A DNA stretch of 64,000 bases, taken from positions 54,554-118,553 of the IMG/VR virus record IMGVR_UViG_3300042503_001836; one strand, given 5' to 3'. The notes under the pieces are model-generated. The model searched no databases and had not been told where the DNA came from. It saw only the letters and a program-made list of their open reading frames with translations. Source of the DNA: a virus. Shown piece after piece: positions 2,752 to 32,127 of the stretch; position 1 is the first letter of the stretch, and every line of letters begins with the position of its first letter. The position numbers and the translations under genes were made by a program.

Positions 2752-2800
2752 CATAAGCTTGTGTTTTATGGTTTCTAAATTCATTTTAACACAAATGTGC

Positions 2801-4050: not shown

Positions 4051-4078
4051 AATTTTCCCACAAAGATAATTAAAAAAT

Positions 4079-4536: not shown

Positions 4537-4555
4537 GGTTTACAAGCTACCTCAA

Positions 4556-4984
4556 CTAAATTTTAACTAAATTACTAAAATGCAATTCTTGAACTGCATT
4601 ATTCCAAAGCGTTTTTTCTTGTTCACTTAACACATACCCATCATTAATTAACTCATCAAGACTATCTTTTAATGCTTGTTCTGTTCTAATATTTGACAGG
4701 ACAGTAATTAAATTAACGTAATCAACAGATAAAATATTGTCTGTTTTAGCCTCTTGTTTCAAACGTAAATAAAGCGGCTTTAATTCACCTGCTAAAACAC
4801 TACTATAAAGACCATCCCAATCCGGTAGCATAGGTAGAATAATAACATCAGCAGGCTCAGGGGTGTTGCCTTTAGCTAACCACGCTTCATATAATTGCCA
4901 GTCACCGTTCTGACCTTGGGGAATTGTTGCACCATCAAATAAACGAATTATTTGATTTGGGTTGGAAGTTAGTTTGTAAGTCAT
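4556..4984 (-). CDS. Tail fibre assembly/chaperone-like protein (copy 2)
   Basis: [32 protein letters not shown] motif; follows a fibre gene; near-duplicate of 6328-6753. Confidence 0.75.
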
Positions 4985-4988
4985 AAGT

Positions 4989-10976: not shown

Positions 10977-10981
10977 GTTCC

Positions 10982-14768: not shown

Positions 14769-17700
14769 TTATCTGTTGTAAGGATTACCACGATTAATAG
14801 AACCGCCTACTCTCATTTCCCGACGAATACCATCTGATACCATCGCTTGTACAGCCTGTGACAGTCTGTAGGTATCTACTTCAGAATCACTGCCAACCTC
14901 AACACTTACAGGAACATTTATAGTTGTCGTATTGCCAATCTTAGATGCCATACTACCGTTACCACCTGCACCTACAACACCACCATTAGCAAACCCAGCC
15001 ACACCGCTTTGCAACTTATTCCAAATAGCGGTTTCTTTGTGGTTAAGAACCCGTTCACCTTCAGAAGCAACTATTAAATGAGGCTTACGTCCAGTAATAG
15101 ATCGCTCCTTATTCATTACCCCAACTATCCCGCCATCAGCAAACATTGGTAAAGTAGCAAAACCAAAATCTGTAGGAATAGCATCAAATAATCCAGGCGT
15201 AGGATTAAATCCCATAGAATTGGCATTAAACACAGAACCAGAGAGAATATCAAAAGTGCCACCAAGAAGACTGCTAAAAATATCACCACCCGCGTCCATT
15301 GCTGTGTTTGCCACAGTTTGACTACTTAATGTTAAAGCAGCTTGCATCAACATTTGCCCAGCTTGGTTTAATGTCATACCTGCCAGGTTGAGTCCATTAG
15401 CACCAACACTCAAATCAGCTAAACCTTTAACAGCATTTATACCATCAGTTGGTTTTTCATCTTTCTTTTTATTTCCAAACAATCCCTCAGTCCAACCAAA
15501 TAGAGCATCAGTCATGCGTTTAGATGCCATATCAGCTAGAGGATCAAGGAAACCTTTCATAATAGAGTTAAATAGATCACTTACGGACTCGCCAAACCCT
15601 TTTGTACTTAATAGGAACTCCTTAAACCCGCCCCTAAAGCTACTTGTGACACCTTTAACCACAGTTCCTAACTCAGAGAATTGTAGTTTAATAGCGTCTA
15701 GTTTTGCTTCATTAGTCAGCTTGAGATTTTCCCGTAAAGTATTAATCTGTTCATTAGTTAACTTATTAGCTTCCGTAGCTTCAGCGTTCTTTCTAATAAA
15801 ATCATCTAACTGAAGCGTAGCCTTAGCAAAATCCATCTGTTGATTATTAATAGCCAATTGCTTATCAATCTTTTCAGCACGGAAATCAAGACCATAGGCT
15901 TTGAGTAGAGAACTTCTAGACTCTTGTACACCTTTAAATGAATCCTGGATAAATTGCACTCTTTCTAATAATCTAGAAGGAATATTTGCATTTTCAGCAA
16001 TACGATCATTTTTTTGTTTTAACTCAATATTTTGTTTATTGCGTTCAAATTCTTCCTTAACGTAGTCCCTTCTTTTCTTAGCTTCTTCAGAAGAAATAGA
16101 CCGACTATTTTCTTCATTTGTAATAGCATTAAGTTTTTCTTTATATTCATTCTCGGTATTTAATAAAGCTAGGTTTGCTTCTAAATCAGCAGTTCTAGCA
16201 GACCTTGGATCAAGTGGGTTTAATTGCTGTAATAGTTTACGCTGTTCAACTTGTTTTTGGAGTAAACTAATTCGGAGTTTTTCAGTTTGTAATGTAACTC
16301 CTGTTCGTCTAGATATTTCCTCTCTATTAAATTGTTCTACTCTTGCTTCAAGTATTTTAGGAGTATTTTGATTTAATTCAGCTAATGCTTTTTTAGCTTG
16401 TATATTCTGAAGTACAGTAGTTTTAAAGACCTCGTTATTTGTATTAATTGCGTTAAGTGCCTGTTCAGGACTGTCTGGAAATTTCTCTAAAGATGCAACA
16501 AAAGCAGCTTTTAGTAATTTTTCATTGTCAATTACACCTTGAGTATCACGAACTGTTTTTTCTAACGCTTCTCTCTTTTTCTCTAATGAACGAATAAGCT
16601 CTTGATAGCCAATCAAGAATCGTTCAACATTACTCATGTTGGGAGACAAGCCCTCTCTTATAGTTTTCCAAATATCTAAATCAGTATCTTTCATACTGCT
16701 TTGAATTTGAAACATAGATTCAGTAGTTTGTCTAAGTAAACGATATAACCCTAACAATTGCTGTGTTCTGTCTGTTAATAGCTGGGACTCAGTATTCATA
16801 GAGTTGGCTGCATTTTGTCCATCGGCTGTATTGAATTTAAGATTTGTTGCATCTGTAACATTTGATTGCATTTCGTCAGGAGTAAGAGTCCCGCCAGTAT
16901 TAACTAGTTGATTCAACCTATTAAGATTTTCTTGATAAGTCTTTAAGAAATTACCATGTTGTCCTTGGGGTGTTCCTTGTCCTTTATATGCACTTCTATT
17001 CTTACCCGACTGGATACTGGCATAATGTAGTGCAAGTTTATTTAATACAGATGTATCTACTTGACCTTTCAAAACTTGATCTAAAACACCTCTAGATTTT
17101 AAGGAATGAATAAAATACAAATCTTGCATACCCGGGCTAAAGCTTGGTTGATCCTGACCTTGATAGTCTGTCAACTTAAACATATCCGGCATGGCATTTT
17201 TACCAAACTGTTTTTTAGCCGCTTGGATAGATGCGTTAAAGTTCATCATCTGATAGCGTCCGGCTGCAGTGCTACTGTTGTTAATCCACTTAATCCAAGT
17301 TGGTTTCCTACCAGTTCCCACATAGGGATGTTTAGAGAAATCAGTAACATTCTCACCACCAATCGTTAGACCATAGCCAAAGTTCCTAGTATTTTTTCTA
17401 AAATCAGAACCCTCAGCATTAGCCACAGCATTAGCCAAAGCTAAAATATACTTATTCTTACGCAGTTCATAAAGTTGTTTACCAAGTGGGGTTAGTTTTG
17501 CATACTCTTCAGGGCTTAAGTCATTACCACCTTGAGATATTCCTGAAGAATTTTTAATACCTATCGTACCAGGTACAGGCGGTAATATGGGAACGGGTTG
17601 TCTTTTTGGCAACGGCTTAACCTGTGATGCGACATTCTTAGCTATTTCTACCGCACCAACAGCTTGATCAAAGACAAAACTCTTAATACCCGTACTCTTT

Positions 17701-20700
17701 AATGCTTGCTTAAATTTATTAAATTCTGCTTCGTTAGCAAATACAATACAACCACTAGAGCCAGGATCAACAAGTCTGTCCTTATCAATGTGGAAACCAA
17801 TAGCGGTTCGTTCTGTTTTAAAATCAGGTTCAAGTCTTATAAACTCATTCCCCATTTTAGCCTTATTGCCGCTAGGAGTAGTTTTACCAAGTCTATAACT
17901 ACCAAACTCTACAGGTTGTTTAGACCCTGCTTTTGTTTCACCTGCACCACCAAATATTTGAGTATCCGCCTTACCTGAATTAACAATAAATCTATCAACT
18001 ATCTTTCCTTGTTTAATGACGGCTAACTGGATTTTTTCTAATCCAAATTCATCTTTTTGTCCCAATCGCTGCATCCTGATTACAGATTCACCCTTGGACT
18101 GACTGGCAGGAGTAACAGTATTAGCTTTAGTTTTAGCAGTTGCCGGAGGTTGGGAAGCGATCGCACCATAATCACCCTTAGCTAAATTAGCAAGGAACAC
18201 TTGAGGGTTAATATAGCGTCCGTTTGCCTTAACCCCAAAATCTAGATGATGTCCTAATACATTACCCAGTTTTTGCCCAGCTTGTACTTGTACAGGTTTG
18301 CTCAAGTCACCAAGAGTATTTTTGATACTATTAAGTGCTAAGTGTCCATACTCTATAGTTATCTTTGTACCCGATGGTAATATACTATTAACAAACACAG
18401 CAGCATCTTGTCCGCCCCATTTTTGCAATTTAGCTACACCTGCAAGACTAGCAATAACTTCTGCACCAGCACCACCCTTAACACGACTGTCAAAATCAAC
18501 CTTATTGTGTAAACGTCCTGGACGTTGACCCATGACACTTTGTCCAAAGGTGGGTTTATAGTTAATCAAATCTTGGATAGTCGTATTTTTAATAGGTGAT
18601 GTAAATTGATTTGCTACTGTAGGTATAACCGTTGGTGCTGGTGTTGCTGATGCTGCATCCTGTGTTGTAGGTGGCGTTATAGCTGACGATACAGCCGATG
18701 TTATACCACCAAACACACGACCTACAGTGTTTAGTAAATTACCTGCCCAGTCAGAAGAGTTATTTTCATTAGTGACTTGATTTAACTTACCTAAAGTTAC
18801 ATCTAACTTAGTTCCTACGCCCGTCACAGTATCACCAAGTCCCTTAAAGGCATCGTTAAGACCACTAGTAGCTATTACTGCGTCTTGTCCTAAAGACTTC
18901 ACAACCTCTTGCACATCAGAGTTTATACCAACAACACTACCCTGAACTGTTCTAAGTTGATCGTCAAACTCTTTAATTTTATCCTCATCAAAAGGAACTA
19001 TCTTACCTGGTAGACTTCGTTGTAATTCACTAGCACGAAGCTTAATGTCATCAATATTATTTTGATAATCAATTTCCTGTTTTTTAGCATCTAACTGACG
19101 TTTTTCCATCTCCGTAGTTTGAGAGATAATATTAATAAGCCCCTCAATAAATTGAGTGTAAATGTTATCGCCAGCACCTATCAAAGCTTCTCTAAGCTTG
19201 TTTTGCATCCTAGATCCTTCTAGGGTTTTTTGTGCTTTTTGGAACTCTATGCTTACCGCTTGCGCTTCCCTAACAGAAGCTCTATAGTATTCAGCTACTT
19301 GTTTAGTCTGGTCAATCAAAGCCTGTTTCATATCACGCTGGGCTTTGGCCATTTCTTGTGAGTTTTGAGCTAATGCCTCTCTATCTTTAGTAATATCGCC
19401 TCTTAACTTATCAAATTCCGCTTGTGCTTCATTTAAGTTAGTACCACCAGCCGCAATAACTTGGCTTATCTTGTCTAAGGCAGCTTGATCACTATTAATC
19501 TTTTCAGTTAATAAAGTGCGTTGGCTGCTTAAATCAGCTAGTTGAATATTTGATAATTCCGGTGCTATTTGTTGCGCTGTTCCCGATGATGCGTAAATTT
19601 TAGCCTGACTTAAATTAGACTTAATCCTATTAGCAGATGTAGCACGCTCAAATCTAGTATTTGCATCCTTAACAGCATTGGTAGCTTGGGTATATAAAGC
19701 CTCTTCCATAGGTCGGACATCAAACGGTTTTGCCCCAGCAATCATGTTTTTAAGCTGGTCAATTCGTGCTTGAGTCTTTTGGACAGCAGCAGGAATTAAA
19801 TTTCCTGTAACACCTTCAACCGCGCCTAGCTGTAACTTTTGCTTATATTCTTCTTCCTGTTTAAGCATCCGTTCCAACATAGGCAACGGTGATCCAAAGC
19901 TATTAACTAGATCCTCACGTTTTTTGTAAAGTTGTTGAATTAATTGCTTAACCTCACCTTGTTCCTTACGAACCTTATCACTCGGTAACGCCTTGTTTAG
20001 TTCTACACTTCGTTTAGTTGCTGCCTCTAGTTGTTTGTCAATATTTTTAATCTCTTTAAAATCAAACGCACGTTGTATAGAGGTTTTGATAATGATCTCC
20101 TGATTTTTCCTTTGATTTTCTAATGCTTGTAATTCCTCTTTAGCTTTTTCATATTCTTCTTTAATTTTTTTATCCCGTCTATTAAAGAAAGTAGGTACAG
20201 TCAACTTTTCAAATTCAGCTTTCTTTTGCGGAATTTTTTTATCAAGATCCTCCATAATTTTTCTATTTTCTAGACGATCACCTACTTCAAACTCAGAGGA
20301 TTTGATAGCCAAAGTATTCCGCATCTGTTTAGACTGATTTTCTAAGTTTTTAAAATCAGCACTGTTTTGTATATCTTTAATTTCTTGAGGACTAGCACCT
20401 CTAGCTTTTGCATCGGCTAATACAGCTAATCTTCTATTGTTGTTATCCTCAATTTGTCTGTTAAGATTTGATATATCTTTGTTAGCATTAAATTTTTGTT
20501 GCTGTTCTATTGTCAGTGGTTTGATATCAGCTACAAAGTCACTAGGTTTACCAGTAAATCCTTGACTAGACGCAAACTCTTTTAAGTTTTGGATATTTTT
20601 TTCTTGATCCTCAAAATATTTGATAACCTGTTGTTGCGCGTTAGTTAATCGGGCGTTTGGATCTTCTGTATCAAAATAGCTTTTTATTCCTTTGTTTTCT

Positions 20701-23700
20701 GGTTTGTTAAGAAACTCTTTTTGTTTGTCTGTTAGTTTAGGTGCAAATAAGTCAAGAGCCTTAGTGGCTAATGTTATAGCAGCAATGAAAGCAACAACCG
20801 CAGTAAGAATAATAGTAAGAGGGTTAGCAAAAAGAGGTGCTAAAAGCATAGCTAGTTTACCTATAAGAGGTACTGCCATGAGTGGCCCGGATGCACCTGA
20901 AGCAATCAAGGCAGCATTGGAAGCCATAGCGGTAGACGCAGCCACAGAAGCCGCAGTAGTAGCTGAAGCTAAACCTACATTAGCAGCATACGCAGCACCA
21001 GCACCAGCCACACCTAAAGCACCTACACCAAGAAAATCCATTACTGGATTAGCTTGACCTTTATTTCTTGCCTTGATTGCATCATCCCATTTAAAGTCAC
21101 CACCACCCCAGAAGCTTCTAATGTCAAGCTGTACGCCTTTAGAAGGTAATGTGTCAGCTAGTGATCCGCCTAACTTTTTAACATTGTTAGTTGCTTTATC
21201 AAAGGAGTCCGCCGTTTTTTGAACATTGGCTCTAATCTCAGTCAAACCGTTATTTAGTTCCTTAGTTGCTTCCTTGAGTGAATCACCCATAGGATTGCTA
21301 AAGTCACCTTTAGAGAACATCAAGATAGCAAAAGCGACCCCTATATGAGTTAATGCTTTTCCTAAGAATCCTAATGAAGCCGCAAACAGTTTATTTCTTG
21401 CAATTCCGGCATCCATAGCTGCATTAGCCGCACCCATTGAAGTTAGCATTAATTCACTAGCAGCTTTCATTGTAGTCATGAAGCCTATAAAAGCCTTTGC
21501 TGAACTACTGAACATTCCTGCGGCTGCACCAACTACACTCGTGATCATTGGCCAAAGAGCCATTTTTACTAAAGCCGTAGCTTGTTCAAACATGAACACC
21601 ATTGCTAGTAGTTCTACAACTCCTGGAGGAATGACTTTAAAAAACCCACTAAATACACCTTTAAGCCCGTCAATTATATTACCCGCTTGTTCAGCACCTT
21701 GTACTAAGCTGCCAAACATAGATGAAAAGCTAACATTACCATCACTCATAGACCGCATAACAGAATCTATAGTGCTAAAAAGTGCTACAACAAGATTACC
21801 TACACCACTATTCATGTTAGAAATTAGGTCTTTTTCTGCACCTAACCAGTTGTCAGCAACATCCGCAGTAATGCCAACAATTAAAGGCATCATGTTAGTA
21901 GCCATAACTGAAAAAGTTGCCATTAATAGGTGTTGCAAAGATCCAAGTAAAGTAACCAAGGGTTTAAACTTAGTCATAATTACTGTTAACCCTATTGCTA
22001 TGGTTGCAGCAAAACCAATGGCAAAAGATTGACCTAAAGGTATTAATGCTCCAAGACTCTTACTGAACAAAGATAAGCCATCAGCAAAAGTGCTAACAAA
22101 GAAACCTAGAGTTCCGCCTAACTTATCAGTAAATATTGTGGTTATTTCAAAACCCACATTACCTAGTTTATTTAATGCAACAACTAGCCCACCCGCTTGA
22201 CTAGCAGCCGAATTACCATAATCTTGTTTGAGTACCTTAGCAACTTTAGGTAAGATATCCTGAGATAACACACTACCAGATGAGATGAGAGCGTTCATTT
22301 CTGGTACTGACACACCCATAGCCTTAGCAAATACACCCATAGCTGGCGGGAATTTTTCGCCTAATTGCTGTCTTAATTCTTCCATTGACAGCTTACCTTT
22401 AGCCAGAATTTGAGTATAAGCCATGAAGACTAAACTTGCATCTTGACCAGTAATACCTAACGCGCTTAGAGATGCTGTTATACCTTCAAACAAATCTCTG
22501 ACACCTTGTCCTTCCATCTTACTATCTCTAGCTGCAATAGCTAATTGAGAATAAGAATTAGCCGCTACTTCAGAAGGAACATTCATTTTATTAGCAATGT
22601 CTTTGGCATACTTAAATTCTGCCTCGCCACCTGCCTTAGAGCCGCCTAAGAAAGTAAACCTTCTTTGTAATACTTCTACTCGCTGAATACCGTCCATTAA
22701 TCTAGCGACATGGGGTGAAACCATACTAACAGCCGCACCTATACCACCAATAATCGGAGCTAGAGGTAAGAATAAGGGACTTAAGGAAGCAAACAAAGAT
22801 GTTACAGGTGCTAAAGTTGCAGCAATAGACCCCATAAATTGCAACACATTCGGGAAAGTTGCGTCAGCTTCTTTTGGATCGCTAAACAGAACTTTTTTCA
22901 CACCAGATCCCATCTGGTTGTACATTTCCTTAAATTGATCCTGGGTAGCTACAGTACCCCGACTCATGCGCTTAAATATGACTCCAACAGCATCACCAAA
23001 GTTAGCTTGACCTAGTGCTTTTTTAGCATTGTATTCCAGGTCGTCTTTAGCGTTAGCAAGGTTACGTACAGAGTCTTTAAAACCTTCGGCTATAGATTTA
23101 CCCATATCAAAGCCTTTTTCCTTAAACTTAGCTTGTAAGCCAGTTAAGGATGCCATCAAACCCGCGGTAGCCGTATCTAAAAGTTTAGGATCGATGTTTT
23201 TAAGTTGCTGTGAAGACATACCAGCTTTTCTCAAGCCTTCTAGTAATAAGCCTTTCATAGCTTCTTGATCATTACCAGCATAGGCTTCGGTAAGTCTGCC
23301 AACAAAACCAGTAGAACGTGGAGCATTAACCAAACTTTGACGGAAAGTATCTAACCCACCAGAATCTCGCATCTGTTGGAAAGTTTTAAAAGCTACGCCA
23401 CGCTCACTTAAAACCTTTGCTGTAAGTGAGTCTAATTTACCTTGTGCTTTATCATCACCTAAAACTGCTCTAGAACGTTCAATATCACCCATTGCTTGCA
23501 TAAGTTTACGCTCATTATTGGTTGCCGCAATAGGATTATTTAGAATGTTTTGGCGTGCTGCGTCTAACTGTGCATCAGTCATAGCATCACGGGTAGTTTT
23601 ATTAACTCCACGTCTGCGTAACGCTTGTTTTGTCATAGCATCTAGCACTTGTGGAGATATAGGACTGAACTGCGATACCCCTTCTAAAGCCTTTTCTACT

Positions 23701-26700
23701 TTGTTTCTTTGAGTACCAAGAGAGTTAATTGTATTTACTATTGTTCCTGATTGTTGTTTTAGTTTATTCCCTGTTAATCCTTGTATAACAGAAGTAGGAA
23801 TCATAGGAATATTGAGATTTTCTAAAACACTGTCTATGGCAGTATTACCTAAATTCTCAATTAATTGTTGACTCGCTTGAGTACCTTTAGCATTACCTAA
23901 TCCTGCTTTTTTGCGATTAGCCGATGTTTGTTCTTGTAAAACTTGTTCAACAGTAGGAGCTTGGTTTCTAGGATTTGATCTTGATGATTGATCCAAACCT
24001 AAGATCCCACCAAAAGTATTCATGAACATTCCAAACATACCTAGTCCCATTGATGCAAGACCACCACCACCAACAATTGATGGTAAAGGGAACATGCTAG
24101 GGACAGGATTCATCATCTGGGATATGCCACCTAGTATCCCGTGTGTTTTTTGTCCAGATAACGAAGATAAATCTATTCTGGTAACAGAACTTAGTAATTT
24201 TGTTAAGAAACCACCGGGTTTTAAGACATCATTATTAAGTAAGTTCTTAATAATTGCGTTACCCAAGCCTAAAGTTAAGCCACCAAGTACAGGTATCAGT
24301 GGTTTTAGCATGGGTACAAGTTGCAATGTCTTGGGTATGAATTTCATAAACCAAGGCATTATAGAGCGAGTTTGAGACAACAGACCTTGATAAAGTGGCT
24401 GTTTTAAAGTATCAGCAAGAGAGAATAACGCCGCGTTTACAGCATTACGCATCACCTGGCCTAATGAAGCATAACCAGAAAGTGTGCTTTGACGGACACT
24501 ATCACTAACAGCAGTAAATAAATTAGTAATTAAGTCTTTACCCAGACTCAAATACTGACTCATCATTGTTGGTGGTACTGGAGGTATGGGCGGTGTAGGG
24601 GGTGTGGGTGGTGATGGCGGAGATGGCGGTGTGGGTGGTGATGGGGGTACTGGAGGTACTGGAGGTACAGGAGGTACTGGAGGTACAGGTCTAGGAGGAA
24701 CAGGAGGTACAGGAGGTCTAGGAGGAACAGGAGGTCTAGGAGGTACAGGAGGTACAGGTCTAGGAGCAGTAGTCCAAGGATCTGGAATTTGTGAATAACT
24801 ATCAAATAACCGGGACATATTACCAGCCATTAATGCATTTAAGTTAATACGTATGGGTGGGTAGGGCTGTGTAGCTTGTGTTCTAGTTGATAAGTGAGGT
24901 CTTGTTTGCTGAGTTTGCTGAACTGTACTAGCTAAATTAGTTCTTTGCTGTCCTAAGTTTCTATTTGTTGCAGGCACATTTTCAGTATTCTGTGCTTCAT
25001 AGTCTTCAGGTAGAGAATTAACAGCTCGCTTAGACTGTTGTAATATACTTGATATCTGTGGTTTAAAATAATTAGATAAGCCAAGGTATGCCGCTATTGA
25101 TTTACCTTCTATTACACCTTCTGCTAAATCTTGGGCAACATTAAGATCCTTTGATTTGTTATACTTACCTTCTTTGTAACCTTTAGCAATTGTTTGATGA
25201 TATGCGTCTATATTAGCCGCATAGTTAGCTACAAGAGCTTTTTGAGATTCTGTGGCTGTCTTACTTTCATTAACTGTTTTAACCATTAAATCAGCAATTC
25301 TCTTGTTAGCTAAGACTAAAGCAGCCACAGCACCATCTTCAAAACCCTCACCAAAATCTAGACCCATTTCTAGCATAACTTTTGATGGGGATGCAATCCC
25401 AAATATTCTTTTAATCGTAGATAATATACCTGTAGCAAACTTAGTAACTATCCCTAAAACGCCACCATTTGCAGACAAGAATCCTTGTCCAAAAGAAGTT
25501 ATTAAATTAATACCAATGTCTTTTAAACTTCCGCCTTTGCTAAATGCAGATTTGGCACTGTTAAATAAATTGCCTAAAATAGTATCACTGCCAAAGTCTT
25601 TTTTAACACCTGATAATAGATTAGATAGAGGGTTTGCAGGTTGATCAAACTCTTCTAGATAAGATTTAATTTCTGGGTGTTGTGTAAACGCATTATAGTC
25701 AGCATTTGAGTTAAAAGCAGTGCGTGCTTTTTCTTGTAACTGTTTAAGTTTTTCAGATGAAACCGTGTGTGATTGAATGTAAGGTTTTCCACCAATAATG
25801 GAATGTGCCTTATCAGATAATTGAAATTCTTTTTGTTGTGGATGACCACTCAATGCAAAAAGAGTATTATTATCATTGTCTACTTTTCCATAACCCTTGT
25901 ACTTGTCTAGATACTTCAAGCCCATGTTTTGAGCTAACTTAGGATGTTTCAATAAGAAATTATTTAATTTGGTAGCAATACCGAAGGGTGTACTAAACCC
26001 AGTCATTAAATTTGTATCGTGCGTCCAGTCATAGACATCGCTTATCTGTAACCCACCCTCTTTATTGCGTCCATAATTAAAACCGCCTAAAGTGTAATGT
26101 AAATTTTTAAATCCGGGTATTTGACTAACTTCATTGCCTACAGTACCACTACCCACTTCCCAATTTGAAGGAATTTTAGTTGTTTTATTTTTTGAAGCAA
26201 AGTCAAGCATAGACCTGTACATTACTGCTAGTTCTGCCTCTCTAGCAGTACGCCCCTGCAATTTATGAACATCAGTATTTCCTTGATAATAAGCACCTAA
26301 ATGTTTAACTGGTTCTGATAGTTTATTTCCTAGTATGCCAGTATTTCCCAGTGCAACCATAGATGCGCCAAGTATTGATCCAAAAGTTGTCTTTTTCTCA
26401 TGTTTATTGCTTTGCTCATAAACACCCTTAGTAGCTTTAGCACTACCATCAACGGCATTTTCAACAATGGAATCATATGTATTAATGTTCTCAGAATTAA
26501 ATAAATCTAATTCTTTAATTCCCGTATCCACAGCTTTCGCTAATAACTGACTAGCACCTGATACATCAACAACACCTTGTTTAATACCAATAGCCAGACC
26601 TGACGCAATCATTACACCCAAGGCAATCATCACCTTTGAAGGTGAACTAATGCCCATGTTTTGTTTAATCTGATTTTGAATAGCGTCACCAGTAGTATTT

Positions 26701-29700
26701 ATAGCTTTAGAAGATAAGGCAACCGTGCTTAATATACCTTGGCTCAAACCTTCGTTAGTCTGTTTACCGATCTTAATGAAATTATTTAAGGGTGAGTGAA
26801 GTTTTGCACCTAGTGACCCCACAACATTAGCTATTCCTTGAGGTGCGCCATAATCTGCAACACTAGAAGCTATAGCATCTTTCACTGGTAAACCCTGACC
26901 AACTTTAGATTTAGATTTTCTATATAAATCTAAAGGTACAGACAAAGTATCAACAACAGCATCAACACCATAACCAGCAGTTGCAAAATTAGAATTTGCA
27001 CCAGTACCTAAACCTGTAGGTACAACCTTCATGACACTGCTAATGGCTCTTACTATTTCACTCTTACTGAGTTTAAGGTCTTTCAAATTGTCATTTAAAA
27101 CACTCTTAAACGTAGACATATAATCAAGGGAAGTATCAGCTTGTAACTTCGCCTTAGTTTGTCCATGAGCTTGAGTAACAGCTTTAGTAATAGCACTATT
27201 TCTTAATAATGCGGTCATACCAGCTTGAGCAGCATCAACGGCACTGACAGTCATCGGATTAGCACCAAGACCTAACGCGCCAGCTTTAGCAATATTTATA
27301 GTGTGATCAAAAGCCGCTCTAGGTGTAGTCAAAGTTTTATCAGCAACAATGCTATTTACAAAATCTTTAGCAGACCCACCTACAGACTGAAATAAAGTTT
27401 CACTAGGGTTTGCTGCATGCCGTTCTCCAACCTTACCTAGTATTTTCAATCCCGTATCCGTAGCACTTAGACCAGCACTTCCATACGTGCTAATTGATGT
27501 AAGTCCAGGTATTACACTGGTTGCACCAAGAGCTGGATCAGCAAAGGTTTTTACTGCACCTACAATATCAGTTACAGTTGATACCATTTGTCTTGCACCT
27601 TGAGCAACCTTGCTATTACCTTTTTGCATTCCCAAAAACAAACCCGAAGTTATCATCAGACCCATCTCAAACATCAACCAAGATGGTGACTGGATCTGCA
27701 TTTTGGTTTGGACTACTTTAATAAAGTCATCGAGCATAACACGGGCAGCATTGGACACCCCACCTGCACCATGTTTAATCCCGTTTTGCAAACCTTTAGG
27801 AATTTCTACTCCATGCTGTTGTGCTAACTCTGTATAACCCTTTAATTGCTGATCAAATAGTTTTTTGTCAGCGAGGTTTAACTTGCCTTCTAAATGTCCC
27901 GCGTTTTTTCTATTATTTTCTAGAGGTGATTTAGCTCTGCCGTGAATCCCGCTTAATTCACTATTAATATCTTTGCTAAAGCCAGCATCCTCACCCATTT
28001 TTACATATTTATCAACAGTAGCAACGGCTTCTTTAGAGCGACTAATAAAAGTAACAACTTCAGCTCTTGCTGATTTAAGTTCTTCATGCGTACCTACTGC
28101 GGTAGCTTGTTTAACTTTCGCCTGTATTCTCTTATATTCATCTGCAAAATATTTTTTAATAGATGTTAATGCTTTATCAATCTCATCTAAGGAAGTCTGA
28201 GCATATTTTTTTGTATTAGCTGTTTTATCAGAAGAAACAGGCGGTAAAGGTATTAATTTATTTTCGGCTGCCGTAGCATCTTTATAGCCTTGGGATATAT
28301 CAATATTTTTAACTATTTCAGATTGAATTGTTTGGAAAAGTGGCTTAATCTGCTCAGGAATATTAACAGGAATTGGTTCTAATTCCCGTTTTTTAGCTGG
28401 TGGGGGTAATGGTACTTTATTTTCCTTAGCTGGTGGCTGCTTAGGTAAAGGTGCTGAATCTTTCCAAGGATCTGAAATAACTTCAGAAACAAAAGGTTTA
28501 CTGGTTTTAGATTTTGATACAGCTTGAGATTCAGATTTCATACCTATGGAGGCATCACTCAAAGCTTTAGCAGCATTTTTTAAATCGGCTGCGGCTTCTT
28601 TAAGTACATCTGAAGAAGATTTAACAACAGGTGTAACAGGCTTATTTAATACACCTTTACTTAAAAAATCTTTAATGATAGGTGCTGTATTTGGTAATAA
28701 TTTATCAAAGGCAATCTCCACAACTTTTTTAGATTCAGAAGCCAAACCTTGACCTATAAACGTACTTGTAGAATCTTTTTTACCACTTTCAGCCGCATCA
28801 AAGAACCAGCCTACAGCATTTTGAACACCAGATGATGAGTTTTGAGTAACTGAACTGGCCGATTTTCTAACTTGTCTAATAGTCGCTAATTTAGCCCTTT
28901 GAGCAATACTCTCAACACTAATATTAATACTGTCAGAAAATGCCGTATTTATTTCTGACACTGTACTAGAAATAACGCTGGGATTATCTTTAGCTATATT
29001 TTCTTTAAATGATTTAACTCCAGACTTACTACTTTTTTTAGTCTTAATTCCTACACCAAAAGAATTTAAAAAACTATCTGCCGCCTTTTCACCAACATCA
29101 CTCATATCAATGTTAGCGTTTTTCTTAATAGATTGGCGCATCCCTTTAGATATTTCTGAACCAAAACCCATTGAGATTCCTTCAAGAAACCCAGTCAATA
29201 AATCTTTACCTGGTTTTAAAATAATACTAACTGCTTGGTCTATTTGACTATTACCCGTAATTTCTTTAATACCTCCAAACATTGTTTTTAATTCTTCCAC
29301 TACTTCTTGAGTGTTAGCATTAACAACACTGTCACTAGATTTTACGCCTTTAGATATTGCATCAATAAAAGCATTTTCAATACTGCTAGAAACACCACTG
29401 ATAGCACTAAGAATACCTTTTTCAATTCCTTCTGCTATCGATTGAGAAACTTCTTGCTTAGAAGAATCTGTAATCTTAATATCTAGATTTTCTTCTGTTT
29501 CAATTATGTATCGCTTACTAGATAAATTACCCAATCTTTGTTCTAATTCATCTAATTTAGTAACATCAGTATTAACAGCTATGGGGTTGCTATCAAAATA
29601 TTTATTAACTTCCTTAAGGTGCTGTACTTTAGTATGTAAATGTTTATTTAAATCAACAAGTTGATCGTCGTCAACATTAACAACAATCGGATTATTATTA

Positions 29701-29921
29701 AAATATTTATTAACTTCTTTAAGGTGTTGTACTTTAAGATTTAGATGTTTATTTAAGTCAGCTAAACTATCATCGTCAACATTAATTTCTAAATTAATTT
29801 TATCAAAACTTTTTTCAATACTTGCAGCCGCTTCATAGGCTTTCTTTTTAGCCTGTTCTAGAGATTTTTCTAATTGTGCAGTATCAGCACACAATTCAAC
29901 AATTAACTCACCTAAATTCAT
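14769..29921 (-). CDS. Giant tape measure protein with M23 peptidase, L,D-transpeptidase-like (DUF2778-like) and lambda-type lysozyme domains
   Basis: MNLGELIVEL start; tape-measure domain AYTQILAKGKLSMEELRQQLGE; HNKVDF..YGHL..HLDF (M23); GFH..GSSGCIVF; AEG..TAAGRYQ..FSPGMQD (lysozyme); C-terminal FADGG..SEGERVL; position after the tail chaperone. Confidence 0.93.
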   Translation of the reverse strand: MNLGELIVELCADTAQLEKSLEQAKKKAYEAAASIEKSFDKINLEINVDDDSLADLNKHLNLKVQHLKEVNKYFNNNPIVVNVDDDQLVDLNKHLHTKVQHLKEVNKYFDSNPIAVNTDVTKLDELEQRLGNLSSKRYIIETEENLDIKITDSSKQEVSQSIAEGIEKGILSAISGVSSSIENAFIDAISKGVKSSDSVVNANTQEVVEELKTMFGGIKEITGNSQIDQAVSIILKPGKDLLTGFLEGISMGFGSEISKGMRQSIKKNANIDMSDVGEKAADSFLNSFGVGIKTKKSSKSGVKSFKENIAKDNPSVISSTVSEINTAFSDSINISVESIAQRAKLATIRQVRKSASSVTQNSSSGVQNAVGWFFDAAESGKKDSTSTFIGQGLASESKKVVEIAFDKLLPNTAPIIKDFLSKGVLNKPVTPVVKSSSDVLKEAAADLKNAAKALSDASIGMKSESQAVSKSKTSKPFVSEVISDPWKDSAPLPKQPPAKENKVPLPPPAKKRELEPIPVNIPEQIKPLFQTIQSEIVKNIDISQGYKDATAAENKLIPLPPVSSDKTANTKKYAQTSLDEIDKALTSIKKYFADEYKRIQAKVKQATAVGTHEELKSARAEVVTFISRSKEAVATVDKYVKMGEDAGFSKDINSELSGIHGRAKSPLENNRKNAGHLEGKLNLADKKLFDQQLKGYTELAQQHGVEIPKGLQNGIKHGAGGVSNAARVMLDDFIKVVQTKMQIQSPSWLMFEMGLMITSGLFLGMQKGNSKVAQGARQMVSTVTDIVGAVKTFADPALGATSVIPGLTSISTYGSAGLSATDTGLKILGKVGERHAANPSETLFQSVGGSAKDFVNSIVADKTLTTPRAAFDHTINIAKAGALGLGANPMTVSAVDAAQAGMTALLRNSAITKAVTQAHGQTKAKLQADTSLDYMSTFKSVLNDNLKDLKLSKSEIVRAISSVMKVVPTGLGTGANSNFATAGYGVDAVVDTLSVPLDLYRKSKSKVGQGLPVKDAIASSVADYGAPQGIANVVGSLGAKLHSPLNNFIKIGKQTNEGLSQGILSTVALSSKAINTTGDAIQNQIKQNMGISSPSKVMIALGVMIASGLAIGIKQGVVDVSGASQLLAKAVDTGIKELDLFNSENINTYDSIVENAVDGSAKATKGVYEQSNKHEKKTTFGSILGASMVALGNTGILGNKLSEPVKHLGAYYQGNTDVHKLQGRTAREAELAVMYRSMLDFASKNKTTKIPSNWEVGSGTVGNEVSQIPGFKNLHYTLGGFNYGRNKEGGLQISDVYDWTHDTNLMTGFSTPFGIATKLNNFLLKHPKLAQNMGLKYLDKYKGYGKVDNDNNTLFALSGHPQQKEFQLSDKAHSIIGGKPYIQSHTVSSEKLKQLQEKARTAFNSNADYNAFTQHPEIKSYLEEFDQPANPLSNLLSGVKKDFGSDTILGNLFNSAKSAFSKGGSLKDIGINLITSFGQGFLSANGGVLGIVTKFATGILSTIKRIFGIASPSKVMLEMGLDFGEGFEDGAVAALVLANKRIADLMVKTVNESKTATESQKALVANYAANIDAYHQTIAKGYKEGKYNKSKDLNVAQDLAEGVIEGKSIAAYLGLSNYFKPQISSILQQSKRAVNSLPEDYEAQNTENVPATNRNLGQQRTNLASTVQQTQQTRPHLSTRTQATQPYPPIRINLNALMAGNMSRLFDSYSQIPDPWTTAPRPVPPVPPRPPVPPRPPVPPVPPRPVPPVPPVPPVPPVPPSPPTPPSPPSPPTPPTPPIPPVPPTMMSQYLSLGKDLITNLFTAVSDSVRQSTLSGYASLGQVMRNAVNAALFSLADTLKQPLYQGLLSQTRSIMPWFMKFIPKTLQLVPMLKPLIPVLGGLTLGLGNAIIKNLLNNDVLKPGGFLTKLLSSVTRIDLSSLSGQKTHGILGGISQMMNPVPSMFPLPSIVGGGGLASMGLGMFGMFMNTFGGILGLDQSSRSNPRNQAPTVEQVLQEQTSANRKKAGLGNAKGTQASQQLIENLGNTAIDSVLENLNIPMIPTSVIQGLTGNKLKQQSGTIVNTINSLGTQRNKVEKALEGVSQFSPISPQVLDAMTKQALRRRGVNKTTRDAMTDAQLDAARQNILNNPIAATNNERKLMQAMGDIERSRAVLGDDKAQGKLDSLTAKVLSERGVAFKTFQQMRDSGGLDTFRQSLVNAPRSTGFVGRLTEAYAGNDQEAMKGLLLEGLRKAGMSSQQLKNIDPKLLDTATAGLMASLTGLQAKFKEKGFDMGKSIAEGFKDSVRNLANAKDDLEYNAKKALGQANFGDAVGVIFKRMSRGTVATQDQFKEMYNQMGSGVKKVLFSDPKEADATFPNVLQFMGSIAATLAPVTSLFASLSPLFLPLAPIIGGIGAAVSMVSPHVARLMDGIQRVEVLQRRFTFLGGSKAGGEAEFKYAKDIANKMNVPSEVAANSYSQLAIAARDSKMEGQGVRDLFEGITASLSALGITGQDASLVFMAYTQILAKGKLSMEELRQQLGEKFPPAMGVFAKAMGVSVPEMNALISSGSVLSQDILPKVAKVLKQDYGNSAASQAGGLVVALNKLGNVGFEITTIFTDKLGGTLGFFVSTFADGLSLFSKSLGALIPLGQSFAIGFAATIAIGLTVIMTKFKPLVTLLGSLQHLLMATFSVMATNMMPLIVGITADVADNWLGAEKDLISNMNSGVGNLVVALFSTIDSVMRSMSDGNVSFSSMFGSLVQGAEQAGNIIDGLKGVFSGFFKVIPPGVVELLAMVFMFEQATALVKMALWPMITSVVGAAAGMFSSSAKAFIGFMTTMKAASELMLTSMGAANAAMDAGIARNKLFAASLGFLGKALTHIGVAFAILMFSKGDFSNPMGDSLKEATKELNNGLTEIRANVQKTADSFDKATNNVKKLGGSLADTLPSKGVQLDIRSFWGGGDFKWDDAIKARNKGQANPVMDFLGVGALGVAGAGAAYAANVGLASATTAASVAASTAMASNAALIASGASGPLMAVPLIGKLAMLLAPLFANPLTIILTAVVAFIAAITLATKALDLFAPKLTDKQKEFLNKPENKGIKSYFDTEDPNARLTNAQQQVIKYFEDQEKNIQNLKEFASSQGFTGKPSDFVADIKPLTIEQQQKFNANKDISNLNRQIEDNNNRRLAVLADAKARGASPQEIKDIQNSADFKNLENQSKQMRNTLAIKSSEFEVGDRLENRKIMEDLDKKIPQKKAEFEKLTVPTFFNRRDKKIKEEYEKAKEELQALENQRKNQEIIIKTSIQRAFDFKEIKNIDKQLEAATKRSVELNKALPSDKVRKEQGEVKQLIQQLYKKREDLVNSFGSPLPMLERMLKQEEEYKQKLQLGAVEGVTGNLIPAAVQKTQARIDQLKNMIAGAKPFDVRPMEEALYTQATNAVKDANTRFERATSANRIKSNLSQAKIYASSGTAQQIAPELSNIQLADLSSQRTLLTEKINSDQAALDKISQVIAAGGTNLNEAQAEFDKLRGDITKDREALAQNSQEMAKAQRDMKQALIDQTKQVAEYYRASVREAQAVSIEFQKAQKTLEGSRMQNKLREALIGAGDNIYTQFIEGLINIISQTTEMEKRQLDAKKQEIDYQNNIDDIKLRASELQRSLPGKIVPFDEDKIKEFDDQLRTVQGSVVGINSDVQEVVKSLGQDAVIATSGLNDAFKGLGDTVTGVGTKLDVTLGKLNQVTNENNSSDWAGNLLNTVGRVFGGITSAVSSAITPPTTQDAASATPAPTVIPTVANQFTSPIKNTTIQDLINYKPTFGQSVMGQRPGRLHNKVDFDSRVKGGAGAEVIASLAGVAKLQKWGGQDAAVFVNSILPSGTKITIEYGHLALNSIKNTLGDLSKPVQVQAGQKLGNVLGHHLDFGVKANGRYINPQVFLANLAKGDYGAIASQPPATAKTKANTVTPASQSKGESVIRMQRLGQKDEFGLEKIQLAVIKQGKIVDRFIVNSGKADTQIFGGAGETKAGSKQPVEFGSYRLGKTTPSGNKAKMGNEFIRLEPDFKTERTAIGFHIDKDRLVDPGSSGCIVFANEAEFNKFKQALKSTGIKSFVFDQAVGAVEIAKNVASQVKPLPKRQPVPILPPVPGTIGIKNSSGISQGGNDLSPEEYAKLTPLGKQLYELRKNKYILALANAVANAEGSDFRKNTRNFGYGLTIGGENVTDFSKHPYVGTGRKPTWIKWINNSSTAAGRYQMMNFNASIQAAKKQFGKNAMPDMFKLTDYQGQDQPSFSPGMQDLYFIHSLKSRGVLDQVLKGQVDTSVLNKLALHYASIQSGKNRSAYKGQGTPQGQHGNFLKTYQENLNRLNQLVNTGGTLTPDEMQSNVTDATNLKFNTADGQNAANSMNTESQLLTDRTQQLLGLYRLLRQTTESMFQIQSSMKDTDLDIWKTIREGLSPNMSNVERFLIGYQELIRSLEKKREALEKTVRDTQGVIDNEKLLKAAFVASLEKFPDSPEQALNAINTNNEVFKTTVLQNIQAKKALAELNQNTPKILEARVEQFNREEISRRTGVTLQTEKLRISLLQKQVEQRKLLQQLNPLDPRSARTADLEANLALLNTENEYKEKLNAITNEENSRSISSEEAKKRRDYVKEEFERNKQNIELKQKNDRIAENANIPSRLLERVQFIQDSFKGVQESRSSLLKAYGLDFRAEKIDKQLAINNQQMDFAKATLQLDDFIRKNAEATEANKLTNEQINTLRENLKLTNEAKLDAIKLQFSELGTVVKGVTSSFRGGFKEFLLSTKGFGESVSDLFNSIMKGFLDPLADMASKRMTDALFGWTEGLFGNKKKDEKPTDGINAVKGLADLSVGANGLNLAGMTLNQAGQMLMQAALTLSSQTVANTAMDAGGDIFSSLLGGTFDILSGSVFNANSMGFNPTPGLFDAIPTDFGFATLPMFADGGIVGVMNKERSITGRKPHLIVASEGERVLNHKETAIWNKLQSGVAGFANGGVVGAGGNGSMASKIGNTTTINVPVSVEVGSDSEVDTYRLSQAVQAMVSDGIRREMRVGGSINRGNPYNR
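24570..24770. repeat. Pro-rich 9-nt tandem repeats (PPV/PPR/PPT/PPS)n inside the tape measure gene
   Basis: GGAGGTACA/GGAGGTACT/GGAGGTCTA/GGAGGAACA units. Confidence 0.9.
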
Positions 29922-29983
29922 AATAATAATCTCCTCTTATAAAAAAAGATTGTAAATTCGTAATTAAAATTCGTAATTTACAA

Positions 29984-30382
29984 TCAAGGTAATAGCAGAC
30001 TCAACGCGGACAGAACAGGAGCAGACAAACCATTAGTTTTAATTAACTCGGTAATAATCGCTTCTGTCCGTTCACTGACTTTCCGATTATTCTCTTTAAT
30101 TTCGTCTGCAAAGGGCAACAAGTCCACAAAATCAATACTCGGATCTGTTTCTTTTTTGAACCCGTTAAACAGTCCAGACCATCCGATAGCGTGAACCCTT
30201 GCCTCAATGTTTGACTGCTCTTTCCTGTTCTTTTCGAGTGCTTCAATACACTCAAAAACTATATGAATAGGCTGATCGAGAAAGGTATCCCAATCAGCAA
30301 ATCTAGGGTCTAATATCCTGTAAGATTGGATTCTCCAGTAGATGCTACTCCAGTCAATTGGACTGGTTGCTGTTGCTCCCCC
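29984..30382 (-). CDS. gpT-like extension of the tail assembly chaperone, read via -1 frameshift
   Basis: Start-less 132-codon frame (GGATATSPIDWSSIYWRIQSY...LSLLLP) opening at G-GGG-GAG (30376-30382), between chaperone and tape measure genes. Confidence 0.75.
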   Translation of the reverse strand, partial: GGATATSPIDWSSIYWRIQSYRILDPRFADWDTFLDQPIHIVFECIEALEKNRKEQSNIEARVHAIGWSGLFNGFKKETDPSIDFVDLLPFADEIKENNRKVSERTEAIITELIKTNGLSAPVLSALSLLLP

Positions 30383-31143
30383 TGGACAGCCGCATTAGTT
30401 ACAGGTGCTTCTACTTGCCAACGACTGCGCTCATTTTCATAGAATTTGTAAATAGCCCCTACAAATTCATTACTACAACCTTTAGTATCTTCTTCTGTCC
30501 AATCTTCAGTACCAACCTGATATTTTTTCTCAGCTTTGTTGTACAAGAAACCAGTCACAGCTTCCAGATTTTCAGACACAGGCAATACATTAATATTCAG
30601 ATAATCTTGCTCATTAGCAGGTTCATGATTACCGTTAACAACTACTAAGCAATCACCAAATTTAATTACCTGTCTATCTTTCAGATAAAAGTTAACAGGC
30701 GCAATTTTAATCTGAGTAGAATTAAATGCTACAGGTACTAACAATTCCACAGGGAAAGCTACCCGTTTTTGGATTAATAAAGTAGCTATAGCAATAGAAA
30801 CAGAAGCACTATCAATGGCACTTAAAGAATTTAACTCAGTAAAATCTTCAATGTAGTCATAAATCACCGCAGAATTATCAACCTCAACACCACTATCAGC
30901 GTTGCGAGTTGGAGACAATAATTCTTGAGCCTCAGCAATAGTTACACCACGATCTACAGAGATTTTTTTAACTAATTTAGAAGCAATAATCGCTGCTTTT
31001 TGACGTTTAGCGTCAATCATATCCACAGCACTAGCTTCGCCAACAGTTAAAGATCCGCGCTTTTCTAAATAGATAATTCCTGATAGATCATCACCAACTG
31101 GTACAATTTCGTATCTTGGTTTTTTATTAATTACTGGACGCAT
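30310..31143 (-). CDS. Tail assembly chaperone (gpG-like)
   Basis: Between major tail and tape measure genes; slippery site near the 3' end; likely start MRPVINKK. Confidence 0.7.
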   Translation of the reverse strand: MRPVINKKPRYEIVPVGDDLSGIIYLEKRGSLTVGEASAVDMIDAKRQKAAIIASKLVKKISVDRGVTIAEAQELLSPTRNADSGVEVDNSAVIYDYIEDFTELNSLSAIDSASVSIAIATLLIQKRVAFPVELLVPVAFNSTQIKIAPVNFYLKDRQVIKFGDCLVVVNGNHEPANEQDYLNINVLPVSENLEAVTGFLYNKAEKKYQVGTEDWTEEDTKGCSNEFVGAIYKFYENERSRWQVEAPVTNAAVQGEQQQPVQLTGVASTGESNLTGY

Positions 31144-31369
31144 ATTCAATCTCCAAATTATCATCTGAGTCTGCAAAAACTTGATAGGTTGCCACCATCT
31201 GAACTGAATCAGGGATTTTAATTTTGTAGGTAGATTTGTCATTAGAAACAATAATTTCTCCAGATAAACCACCCCTAAAAACTGCCGCACCACAAAGCAA
31301 CCTATCTTGAGCAATGCGGCAGTTGATTAAGATAGCCAGTAAACCTGTACTATCTTTCAAAACTTTCAT
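31127..31369 (-). CDS. Small hypothetical tail-module protein
   Basis: Start overlaps the major tail protein stop; 80 aa. Confidence 0.6.
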   Translation of the reverse strand: MKVLKDSTGLLAILINCRIAQDRLLCGAAVFRGGLSGEIIVSNDKSTYKIKIPDSVQMVATYQVFADSDDNLEIEYASSN

Positions 31370-32127
31370 TAGAGGTTATAGGATGGGAAACCATTAGCTA
31401 AACCACCAGAAGCATAATAGGCAGGTGTCCAAATCCAATCGTCTTGGAACTCTAAAGTAAATGTATACTTCATTACTTCCATTGGTGTACCTGTCAAGTT
31501 TAAAGCGGTAGATTTAGCAGCACCTTCAAATCTAGATCCGTTAGGATAGGTAGCGATAGCATACAATTCACGGTTCATGTACACAGGATCAAAGTGTGTA
31601 CGTTTAATAAATTGTTCTAAGGCAATATCACCTACATACTCAATACCTTCTACAGATATTTCCCGTTTAGAACGGATAATAGCAGAGCTAGTACCAGAAC
31701 CGGATTGAGAATGGGTGGTATCAACAACAGTAGGAGAAGGCTGTAACCCAAAGCTGGTAATTCCCAATAATGGGAACATATCTTGCACTAAACGAGATGT
31801 AGAATTGACGGCAATGGGATCTAACAGAGGTGCAATACTCAAAGTAACGGCAGTTGTACCGTTGAGAGTTGCGTTAGCTAACACTAAAGCCTGTTGTCTG
31901 TTAAGAGGATTAGAAGGTGCAACAAAATTTAAAGAAGTACCCGCAGCAATTGTGTAAGTAACACCAGCAGTAGTAGCAACACTGAGAGTAGTAGCACCTT
32001 CAGCCGCACCAGATGGAGCGGTAATAGTTGCACTGGTAACACTCCGAGTATTTTCAGGTAGCAACTTCAAATCTAAAGTATAGTTTTGAAGAATTACAGT
32101 TTGTACGGGACGATTAGCAGTTGCCAT
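31369..32127 (-). CDS. Major tail (tube) protein
   Basis: PLLGITSFGLQPSPTVVDTT...YPNGSRFEGAA...KYTFTLEFQ tube-protein pattern; synteny. Confidence 0.8.
   Translation of the reverse strand: MATANRPVQTVILQNYTLDLKLLPENTRSVTSATITAPSGAAEGATTLSVATTAGVTYTIAAGTSLNFVAPSNPLNRQQALVLANATLNGTTAVTLSIAPLLDPIAVNSTSRLVQDMFPLLGITSFGLQPSPTVVDTTHSQSGSGTSSAIIRSKREISVEGIEYVGDIALEQFIKRTHFDPVYMNRELYAIATYPNGSRFEGAAKSTALNLTGTPMEVMKYTFTLEFQDDWIWTPAYYASGGLANGFPSYNL

Follow-up and report, generated by a model that had tools for sequence, protein, structure and literature searches.

Results

A giant tape measure protein gene

The stretch of DNA examined in this study, hereafter the window, comprises the right-hand 64 kb (64,000 nucleotides, nt) of the 118,553-bp IMG/VR virus record IMGVR_UViG_3300042503_001836. 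It contains a single open reading frame (ORF) on the minus strand (14769..29921), which runs from an ATG through 5,050 codons (15.1 kb) without an internal stop and is preceded, 9 nt 5' of that ATG, by a Shine-Dalgarno-like AAGAGGAG (29931..29938) as read from the sequence; window coordinates given below likewise refer to the minus strand unless stated otherwise. Based on its intact reading frame, its matches to the TMP_3, TIGR02675 and PHROG families and its collinearity with gp064 of Cylindrospermopsis raciborskii virus CrV-01T, we consider it probable (at roughly 0.78) that this ORF encodes the tail tape measure protein (TMP) of a CrV-like siphovirus that has not been cultured and infects filamentous lake cyanobacteria of the Nostocales type. 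An earlier, sequence-only reading of this DNA, which gave no strand for the ORF, had listed a 15.1-kb frame with a duplicated N-terminal unit of ~36 amino acids (aa), three I.SPS..M motifs, a Pro-rich spacer and embedded enzymes, and all of these features were found.

The identity of the protein as a TMP, also proposed in that reading, is well supported by its TMP core, its TMP-like ends, the gene order and the collinearity with CrV-01T. The core domain (22161..22679) scored 85.7 bits against Pfam TMP_3 (PF20155; cut-off 41) at aa 2415-2587 and 51.3 bits against NCBIfam TIGR02675 (cut-off 21.35) at aa 2485-2556, which places the protein within both families. The two halves of the protein matched 19 and 12 PHROG families, nearly all of them TMPs, with matches that begin at aa ~580 and continue into the last residues. 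The Gly-rich C-terminal end (aa 4801-5050; 14772..15524), whose final residues are near-identical in relatives, aligns to the ends of the TMP profiles phrog_339 (to position 1117 of 1123) and phrog_24 (to 1053 of 1151). Kyte-Doolittle analysis returned 18 windows of 19 aa scoring at least 1.6, 15 of which fall within aa 2373-3053 and define a cluster of hydrophobic, transmembrane (TM)-like helices (20763..22805); this cluster is followed by a charged ruler stretch (aa 3061-3789, 29% charged residues; 18555..20741) that is collinear in relatives and, judging by its composition, is probably helical. Self-BLAST of the 5,050-aa protein (E<=1e-3) revealed no long internal repeats.

Gene order and a probable chaperone frameshift

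Upstream of the TMP gene lies a candidate major tail (tube) protein gene (31369..32127), so named on the basis of its position and a weak match to the major tail family phrog_1407 (E 3.5e-4). Between this tube-like gene and the TMP gene is an ORF for a putative G-like tail assembly chaperone (277 aa from the chosen Met; 30310..31143), which is overlapped by a T-like extension in the -1 frame (29984..30394) that is open for 108 codons beyond the G stop, has no canonical start before 30127 and ends 65 nt before the TMP start. To this arrangement 32 related IMG/VR loci were compared, one of which was excluded as its match runs off the end, leaving 31 relatives plus the window; in all 32 of these loci the -1 frame stays open for 97-108 codons past the stop and GGGGGAGCA is kept at the start of the overlap. 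The peptide encoded by the -1 frame is conserved inside the overlap, and members of the clade at 68% identity have this frame opening, behind a TGA, precisely at a run of G residues. This run, A-GGG-GGA-GCA (30374..30383), is identical in all 11 representatives listed and is a candidate -1 slip site. From sequence comparison, then, the 277-aa ORF and its -1 frame have the layout of a conserved G/GT tail-assembly chaperone pair, with the G-run as the presumed point of slippage.

Downstream of the TMP gene are lambda-like tail tip genes of the K, I and J types (8643..12339; phrog_30, phrog_32 and phrog_31), located at 11581-12339, 10982-11587 and 8643-10976, respectively, the last of which matches a J-like PHROG at E 3e-128 as well as Pfam FNIII-A_GpJ. 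Beyond these, an M-like minor tail gene fused to a fibre (4989-6308; Phage_min_tail below cut-off, PHROG tail fibre matches) and an L-like minor tail gene (3418-4149; Pfam Phage_tail_L, E 1.6e-19) enclose the fibre genes (3418..6308). The ORF thus occupies the place of a TMP gene, with a tube-like gene and -1 overlap chaperones upstream and tip genes downstream. Phage lambda, with its ruler gpH (~850 aa), its frameshifted gpG/gpGT chaperone pair and its M/L/K/I/J tip genes, the last of which have homologues here, serves as the working model for this module; it differs in that gpH is about six times shorter and has no embedded enzymes, and in that its slip site is GGGAAAG where the window phage has GGGGGAG.

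Relatives and the two zones of length change

A search of 5.8 billion proteins returned a family of 46 proteins of 2,814-5,947 aa, five of which exceed 5,050 aa. Nine complete close relatives (core identity 66-90%), encoded on contigs of 46.6-98.7 kb, measure 4,188-5,843 aa, the closest being P0002 (5,747 aa), while the 5,947-aa member is more distant. The N-terminal 30 aa are common to the window protein and all nine complete relatives, in which the last 25 aa are also near-identical. Six more proteins (5,131-5,747 aa), which are possible TMPs, carry one of the enzyme domains described below. Among 185,579 species genomes, a search by peptide patterns matched 35 stretches, none of which was confirmed as a relative, and the plasmid collection contained only distant TMP cores (at most 31% identity). 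The protein had been called exceptionally large in the sequence-only reading, a description that holds against studied phages (P74-26, 5,006 aa; lambda gpH, ~850 aa) but not within its own clade (4,188-5,843 aa, and up to 5,947 aa); so 5,050 aa equals the record among studied phages, yet is a mid-range value among its kin, and this TMP is a large but expected member of the CrV-like giant TMP clade.

The conserved, collinear part among relatives corresponds to aa ~1990-3900 and comprises helical repeats, the TMP core, the hydrophobic helices and the charged stretch, with gaps and replacements restricted to aa ~130-1990 and ~3900-4560. The first zone is an N-terminal arm (aa ~130-1990) containing two to four SPS units, low-complexity segments, a proline spacer and a domain of ~290 aa, while the second (aa ~3900-4560) is an enzyme cassette, in the equivalent position of which relatives carry Pfam labels for M23, phage lysozyme, VanY, GH19 chitinase and RlpA-like DPBB, and also for polysaccharide deacetylase, beta-lactamase-fold and protein kinase domains. 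By alignment, arm and cassette are the two swapped zones, to which most of the length differences are due. The start of TMP_3 shifts from aa 2415 in the window protein to 1977 of 4,416 in CrV-01T and 1002 of 2,987 in Cylindrospermopsis phage Cr-LKS4, so the arm explains much of the difference in size.

Integrity of the gene in independent metagenomes

Since the record is a metagenome contig, the giant ORF might in principle be a chimera created in assembly, or a gene decaying within a defective element, and in neither case be produced at full length. Logan contigs of other sequencing runs are short, none spanning the gene, and variant contigs show skips and loose ends, above all at the proline-rich region: runs X3 and X6 hold diverged gene variants with skips, their contigs breaking at that region, and the loose ends in contigs of other runs lie at 24626-24689, within it. 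Four of the eight listed skips at such variant joints are divisible by three (105, 87, 93 and 144 nt), which suggests possible in-frame length variants. Against a chimera, run X2, an independent metagenome from another study, contains 93% of the sampled words of the gene and covers 30 of 30 bins, with the eight pieces listed differing from the gene at zero or one position; no stop interrupts the 15.1 kb; the same architecture and the same ends recur in the nine complete relatives and in a cultured phage; and the contig encodes a terminase, a portal, a protease-capsid protein and tail genes. We therefore regard this explanation as very improbable. Contigs of an RNA run (X20) match 19 of 30 bins at 90-95% identity and derive from a relative; such contigs are no evidence of a transcript, and DNA carry-over is possible.

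The N-terminal arm

The extreme N-terminus is followed by a tandem duplication of a 36-aa unit (aa 47-82 and 82-117; 29571..29783), the two copies of which agree at 29 of 36 residues and at 87 of 108 bases; the relatives P0002 and P0007, like CrV gp064, also carry this unit. Three I.SPS..M motifs then occur, beginning at aa 743, 1091 and 1509, whereas shuffling the protein 2000 times yielded even one such motif just twice. The first (aa 743-750; 27672..27695) is followed by a hydrophobic helix and lies in a region matching C-terminal parts of TMP PHROG profiles, the second (aa 1091-1098; 26628..26651) is followed by a TM-like segment (aa 1095-1117), and the third lies at aa 1509-1516 (25374..25397). 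The proline-rich spacer (aa 1716-1785; 24567..24776) consists of 61% Pro.

Between the second and third motifs is a conserved globular domain to which no function was assigned (aa ~1160-1430; 25632..26444) and which is termed here the DVYDW domain. Spanning ~290 aa, it is shared by 11 stored relatives (34-89% identity), and the motifs HLG, TLGGF, DVYDW and GG.PYIQ are invariant in their alignment; the AlphaFold2 (AF2) model of the domain is of moderate confidence (pLDDT 71, pTM 0.66). The domain found no match in Pfam, among PDB sequences, by Foldseek (E<=0.001) or in the ESM Atlas, where aa 1100-1500 likewise gave no usable match, and the sole match in a search for stand-alone forms was a partial TMP fragment. 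Its only structural echoes, which are very weak, are to colicin M-type bacteriocins and a type VI secretion system effector: VIA-align returned Z scores of 3.4 (PaeM, 4g76; pectocin M1, 8jc1), 3.2 (syringacin M, 4fzl; BtpeA, 9jdi) and 2.7 (colicin M, 3da4), all far below the level of trust, with 126-151 residues aligned in the colicin M-fold rows at a root mean square deviation of 4.1-5.4. Neither phmmer nor a nine-sequence profile of the domain retrieved colicin M (ColM) chains from the PDB, and Pfam Colicin_M had no match in the phage genome at E<=10, a search in which the control genomes gave none either. The invariant D-V-Y-D presumably resembles the DxYD motif of ColM; with no sequence support and Z scores of at most 3.4, a colicin M-like lipid II hydrolase was not adopted as an assignment and is retained as a weak lead only. 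A TMP-fused virion RNA polymerase of the P23-45 gp96 type was considered and rejected, as no DxDxD is conserved across eight relatives, the sole D.D.D in the window protein being at aa 4412.

P0002, the closest relative, has in place of the DVYDW domain a 589-aa segment that adds one more SPS unit and bears an HExxH motif; the HExxH-bearing part (aa ~1560-1800) shows a weak match to zincin families (Aspzincin_M35, E 0.003, below cut-off). Where the window protein has its 104-aa proline region, P0002 has 401 aa, which include a Cys-rich CxxC...CxxC stretch.

The enzyme cassette

The embedded enzymes announced by the sequence-only reading are three wall-active modules located C-terminal to the charged stretch. 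The first is an M23-like module (aa ~3800-3911; 18189..18524), supported by a sub-threshold Pfam M23 match and by phrog_7767, a metallo-endopeptidase family (E 2.7e-5), while M23 chains in the PDB match it only at E 0.046-0.31. Of the zinc and catalytic motifs of M23 enzymes, HxxxD and HxH, the former is present as H-N-K-V-D.

The second module (aa 3944-4089; 17655..18092) was identified by AF2 modelling (pLDDT >90), Foldseek and homologue alignment as a Cys/His domain of the YkuD fold. Foldseek (probability 1.00) placed it closest to Csd6 (4xzz) and Pgp2 (6xj7), both L,D-carboxypeptidases, and then to YkuD itself (1y7m), with E values of 2.3e-4 to 4.9e-4. H4044 and C4058 are near-invariant (at least 90%) in an alignment of 71 rows, and 23 of the 71 aligned homologues match Pfam YkuD (E<=0.001). 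The model and the alignment thus point to a putative YkuD-fold, L,D-peptidase-type Cys/His enzyme. The third module is lambda-lysozyme-like (aa 4161-4279; 17085..17441): phmmer matched it to PDB entries 3d3d and 1am7 (E 2.5e-7), aligning the Glu of its A-E-G to the catalytic Glu of S-E-G, and Foldseek to 3d3d_A (E 8.8e-4), while Pfam PF00959 gave no match to the window copy at E<=0.5.

Such a concentration of wall-active modules, together with the occurrence of YkuD-fold homologues in small lysin-like proteins alongside amidase, lysozyme and peptidoglycan-binding domains, is what might be expected of a very large toxin, secreted or polymorphic, that attacks cell walls and has no more than domains in common with TMPs. 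The TMP core and ends, the position of the gene in a tail module after a frameshifted chaperone pair and the presence of an orthologue in a cultured siphovirus are at odds with such a role, which we consider the least probable of the explanations weighed here.

Comparison with cultured phages

The best matches in the phage database were CrV-01T and Cr-LKS4. CrV-01T gp064 (AXK90476.1, in MH636380), from a cultured phage, is annotated as a 'phage tape measure protein' of 4,416 aa, and its BLASTP blocks are collinear with the window protein from aa 1-1131 through to aa 4919-5044, i.e. from first to last residues, identity being 34% for aa 1-1131 and 41% for the core. The two share the N-terminal helix, the 36-aa unit, the SPS motifs (two in gp064), a mid-protein TMP_3 domain and the C-terminal end. 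By this collinearity and these shared termini, the window protein, itself a genuine giant TMP, joins the known CrV-like clade as a new addition. Both phages are cyanosiphoviruses with genomes of ~100 kb, which encode a class II ribonucleotide reductase, a dCTP deaminase/dUTPase-type enzyme and an IS605-type transposase. Gp064 differs in being 634 aa shorter, in giving no BLAST match to the cassette (aa ~3790-4900) or to the DVYDW domain, in having no Pfam enzyme domain at E<=0.001 and, unlike the window gene, in not being flanked by tube and chaperone genes. Cr-LKS4 g67 (WHL30633.1, in OQ625504) is a 'tape measure protein' of 2,987 aa, 2,063 aa shorter than the window protein, with which it shares the N-terminus, the core (34% identity), SPS motifs (two) and the C-terminal end; Cr-LKS4 is described as a cultured long-tailed phage (PMC12507012).

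The TMPs of the Thermus phages P74-26 (P74p95, 5,006 aa) and P23-45 (gp96, 5,002 aa) belong to the same size class and likewise combine an embedded M23 metallopeptidase (M23-like in the present case) with membrane segments. This giant Thermus TMP is linked to the longest known tail, that of P74-26 being given as nearly 1 μm (PMC10034513). In contrast to the CrV-like proteins, however, they give no BLASTP match to the window protein, have neither TMP_3 nor an SPS motif, and belong to phages of a thermophilic host. The TMP of P23-45 carries an injected enzyme at its N-terminus (PMC10770324); this cargo is an RNA polymerase with the motif DFDGD, whereas no DxDxD is conserved in the window family.

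Mycobacteriophage TM4 provides a further precedent, as its TMP gp17 also harbours a wall-degrading module (peptidoglycan-hydrolase motif 3). Removal of 114 aa with the motif, predicted to shorten the tail by 17 nm, shortened it by ~20 nm as measured and impaired infection of cells with altered walls (PMC1796659); the tail shortens as predicted, so the residues of an embedded enzyme count toward length. TM4 has one small motif and a tail of ~200 nm, whereas the window protein has three modules and is several times larger.

The viral record, its host and its distribution

The wording of the sequence-only reading, which spoke of induced particles, implied a prophage. This was not demonstrated: the record is a viral contig of 118.5 kb with no evident host flanks that encodes a terminase, a portal, a protease-capsid protein and tail genes, and, being linear, ~93% complete according to CheckV and devoid of terminal repeats, it is therefore treated as a phage contig. 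It encodes a large serine recombinase (Resolvase and Zn_ribbon_recom; L006:14824-16272, minus strand, equivalent to G000:C1:34824-36272) that might permit integration, and an IS200 TnpA/IS605 TnpB pair (L007:2855-4492). No tRNA genes were found in the window or in the whole contig.

Parts of the gene were present in 20 of the 23 listed runs, 12 of which hold at least half of the sampled words; the runs that hold it stem from 17 studies, whose labels are lake, freshwater or lagoon metagenome and, in one case, plain 'metagenome'. Short fragments of close relatives were binned in metagenome-assembled genomes of Dolichospermum and Sphaerospermopsis, with a few in non-cyanobacterial bins, and these bins together with the kinship to CrV weakly indicate a Nostocales host.

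A number of further genes were noted on the record. To the left of the window (G000:C1:14732-23691) are type I-C cas genes (Cas7, Csd1/Cas8c, Cas5d and a Cas3-like helicase, with E values down to 1.6e-87; L005:14732-19963 and L006:19-3691), flanked by two arrays of a 37-nt repeat in ~25 and ~14 copies. The large terminase (window 39501-42215), from which the Mu-type portal gene at 12419-14329 (plus strand) is far removed, has an intein-like insert (Hint and LAGLIDADG_3) before its Terminase_6N/6C domains, and the class II ribonucleotide reductase (G000:C1:37769-41209) also contains an intein with a LAGLIDADG endonuclease. Type I restriction-modification genes for HsdM (window 59193-62560; N6_Mtase, E 2e-55) and HsdS (58011-59012) adjoin a gene for an AAA/SMC-like ATPase close to the end of the record. 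A small protein (window 42459-42944) matches phrog_15863 (E 4e-33) and, weakly, the DnaJ J-domain (E 7e-6, below cut-off); the annotation of Cr-LKS4 includes two DnaJ-domain proteins. Also present are a fusion of a PAPS-reductase domain with a Dam methyltransferase (L006:9958-12063, minus strand), two adjacent beta-clamp-like genes (L007:7259-9772, plus strand) and, elsewhere, genes for a clamp loader and a DNA polymerase A 3'-5' exonuclease domain. A largely uncharacterised protein of 1,472 aa (window 53222-57640) gave only ResIII helicase and PHROG 'replication' matches.

Discussion

Under the established model of TMP function, a few copies of the protein, held by the G/GT chaperones, would extend from the tip complex to which the C-terminus docks, and tube subunits would assemble around them as far as the N-terminus, the length of the protein therefore setting that of the tail. 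At 1.5 Å per residue, this ruler rule would predict a tail of ~0.75 μm (~757 nm) for the phage described here, in line with the very long tail put forward in the sequence-only reading. During infection the TMP would be expelled tip-first, whereupon the cassette may open thick, highly cross-linked peptidoglycan and the hydrophobic helices of aa 2373-3053 may act as a membrane conduit for DNA. The ~2,000-2,400 aa that precede the core would constitute a modular arm made of two to four SPS units, low-complexity and proline spacers, and the conserved ~290-aa domain.

The arm is also where a shorter ruler might be sought. If only the part from the core onward (~aa 2000-5050) measured length, the N-terminal ~2,000 aa being an injected cargo arm or being cleaved during assembly, the tail would be ~450 nm, i.e. 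long but not of record class. The position of TMP_3/TIGR02675, by name an N-terminal TMP domain, at aa 2415-2587 (and at 1977 in CrV and 1002 in Cr-LKS4) would fit such an arrangement, as would the fact that the arm is the main variable zone, is closed by the 61%-Pro spacer and holds a conserved globular domain, whose slot in P0002 is occupied by the HExxH segment with its sub-threshold Aspzincin_M35 match. However, the retention of the extreme N-terminal 30 aa in nine of nine relatives, and of the 36-aa unit in P0002, P0007 and CrV gp064, fits the functional far end of a continuous ruler, and no internal Met is conserved after the spacer, where the window protein reads TMMSQY and relatives SHYLG or LLNQYL. 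Moreover, the RNA polymerase of P23-45 resides in virions within full-size gp96 and the tail is still extraordinarily long, while in TM4 the residues of the embedded enzyme count toward length (PMC1796659). On balance we hold a ruler confined to the core and beyond to be unlikely, and favour the full-length TMP as the measuring element.

The sequence-only reading had also offered large ejected cargo and an adaptation to a thick sheath and peptidoglycan. The former is plausible by analogy, given that ~2,400 aa precede a domain that is normally N-terminal and that P23-45 provides a precedent (PMC10770324); the latter is speculation, with which the three wall-active modules fit loosely. A more specific proposal, which we advance as doubtful, is that the ~2,000 aa before the core form an interchangeable arm for delivery, much as the P23-45 TMP carries a fused RNA polymerase; the SPS membrane units and spacers of the arm would bring exchangeable cargo into the host envelope, the DVYDW domain being a new wall- or lipid II-targeting enzyme. 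Were this so, near-identical phages would have either tails that differ by up to ~250 nm or different injected contents.

Several observations weigh against the assignment of the ORF as the full-length ruler of a CrV-like siphovirus. The phage is known here from its genes alone, and the literature search found no measured tail lengths for CrV-01T or Cr-LKS4. The TMP core, normally near the N-terminus, begins only at aa 2415, so that the arm ahead of it might not contribute to length measuring. The record is linear, without terminal repeats and ~93% complete, and the gene is not covered end to end by any one contig from an independent run. Within the tail module, a Mu-type portal gene (Portal_Mu, E 2.5e-24; 12419-14329, plus strand) intervenes between the TMP and tip genes, the G-like chaperone ORF had no family match, and GGGGGAG departs from the canonical X XXY YYZ heptamer, hence the presumptive role given above to the G-run as slip site. 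Within the cassette, the M23-like module falls short of the Pfam M23 cut-off (22.9 bits against 28.7; E 1e-4), has an AF2 confidence below 50 and reads H-L-D at the HxH position in the alignment to 6jmx, and it was therefore filed only as 'M23-like', while the window copy of the YkuD-fold domain scored 22.9 bits against a Pfam YkuD cut-off of 23.4.

Giant TMPs probe the size limits of the ruler mechanism in tail assembly, and the CrV-like clade provides natural length variants of 2,987-5,947 aa, two of which, those of CrV-01T and Cr-LKS4, belong to phages grown on a cyanobacterium that forms blooms. Should tail length follow protein length in this clade, the tails of these freshwater phages would compare with the longest on record; otherwise, the N-terminal arm would represent injected cargo and a possible source of new envelope-active enzymes. 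The three-module cassette, swapped among relatives, documents the tailoring by phages of their entry tools to the walls of their hosts.

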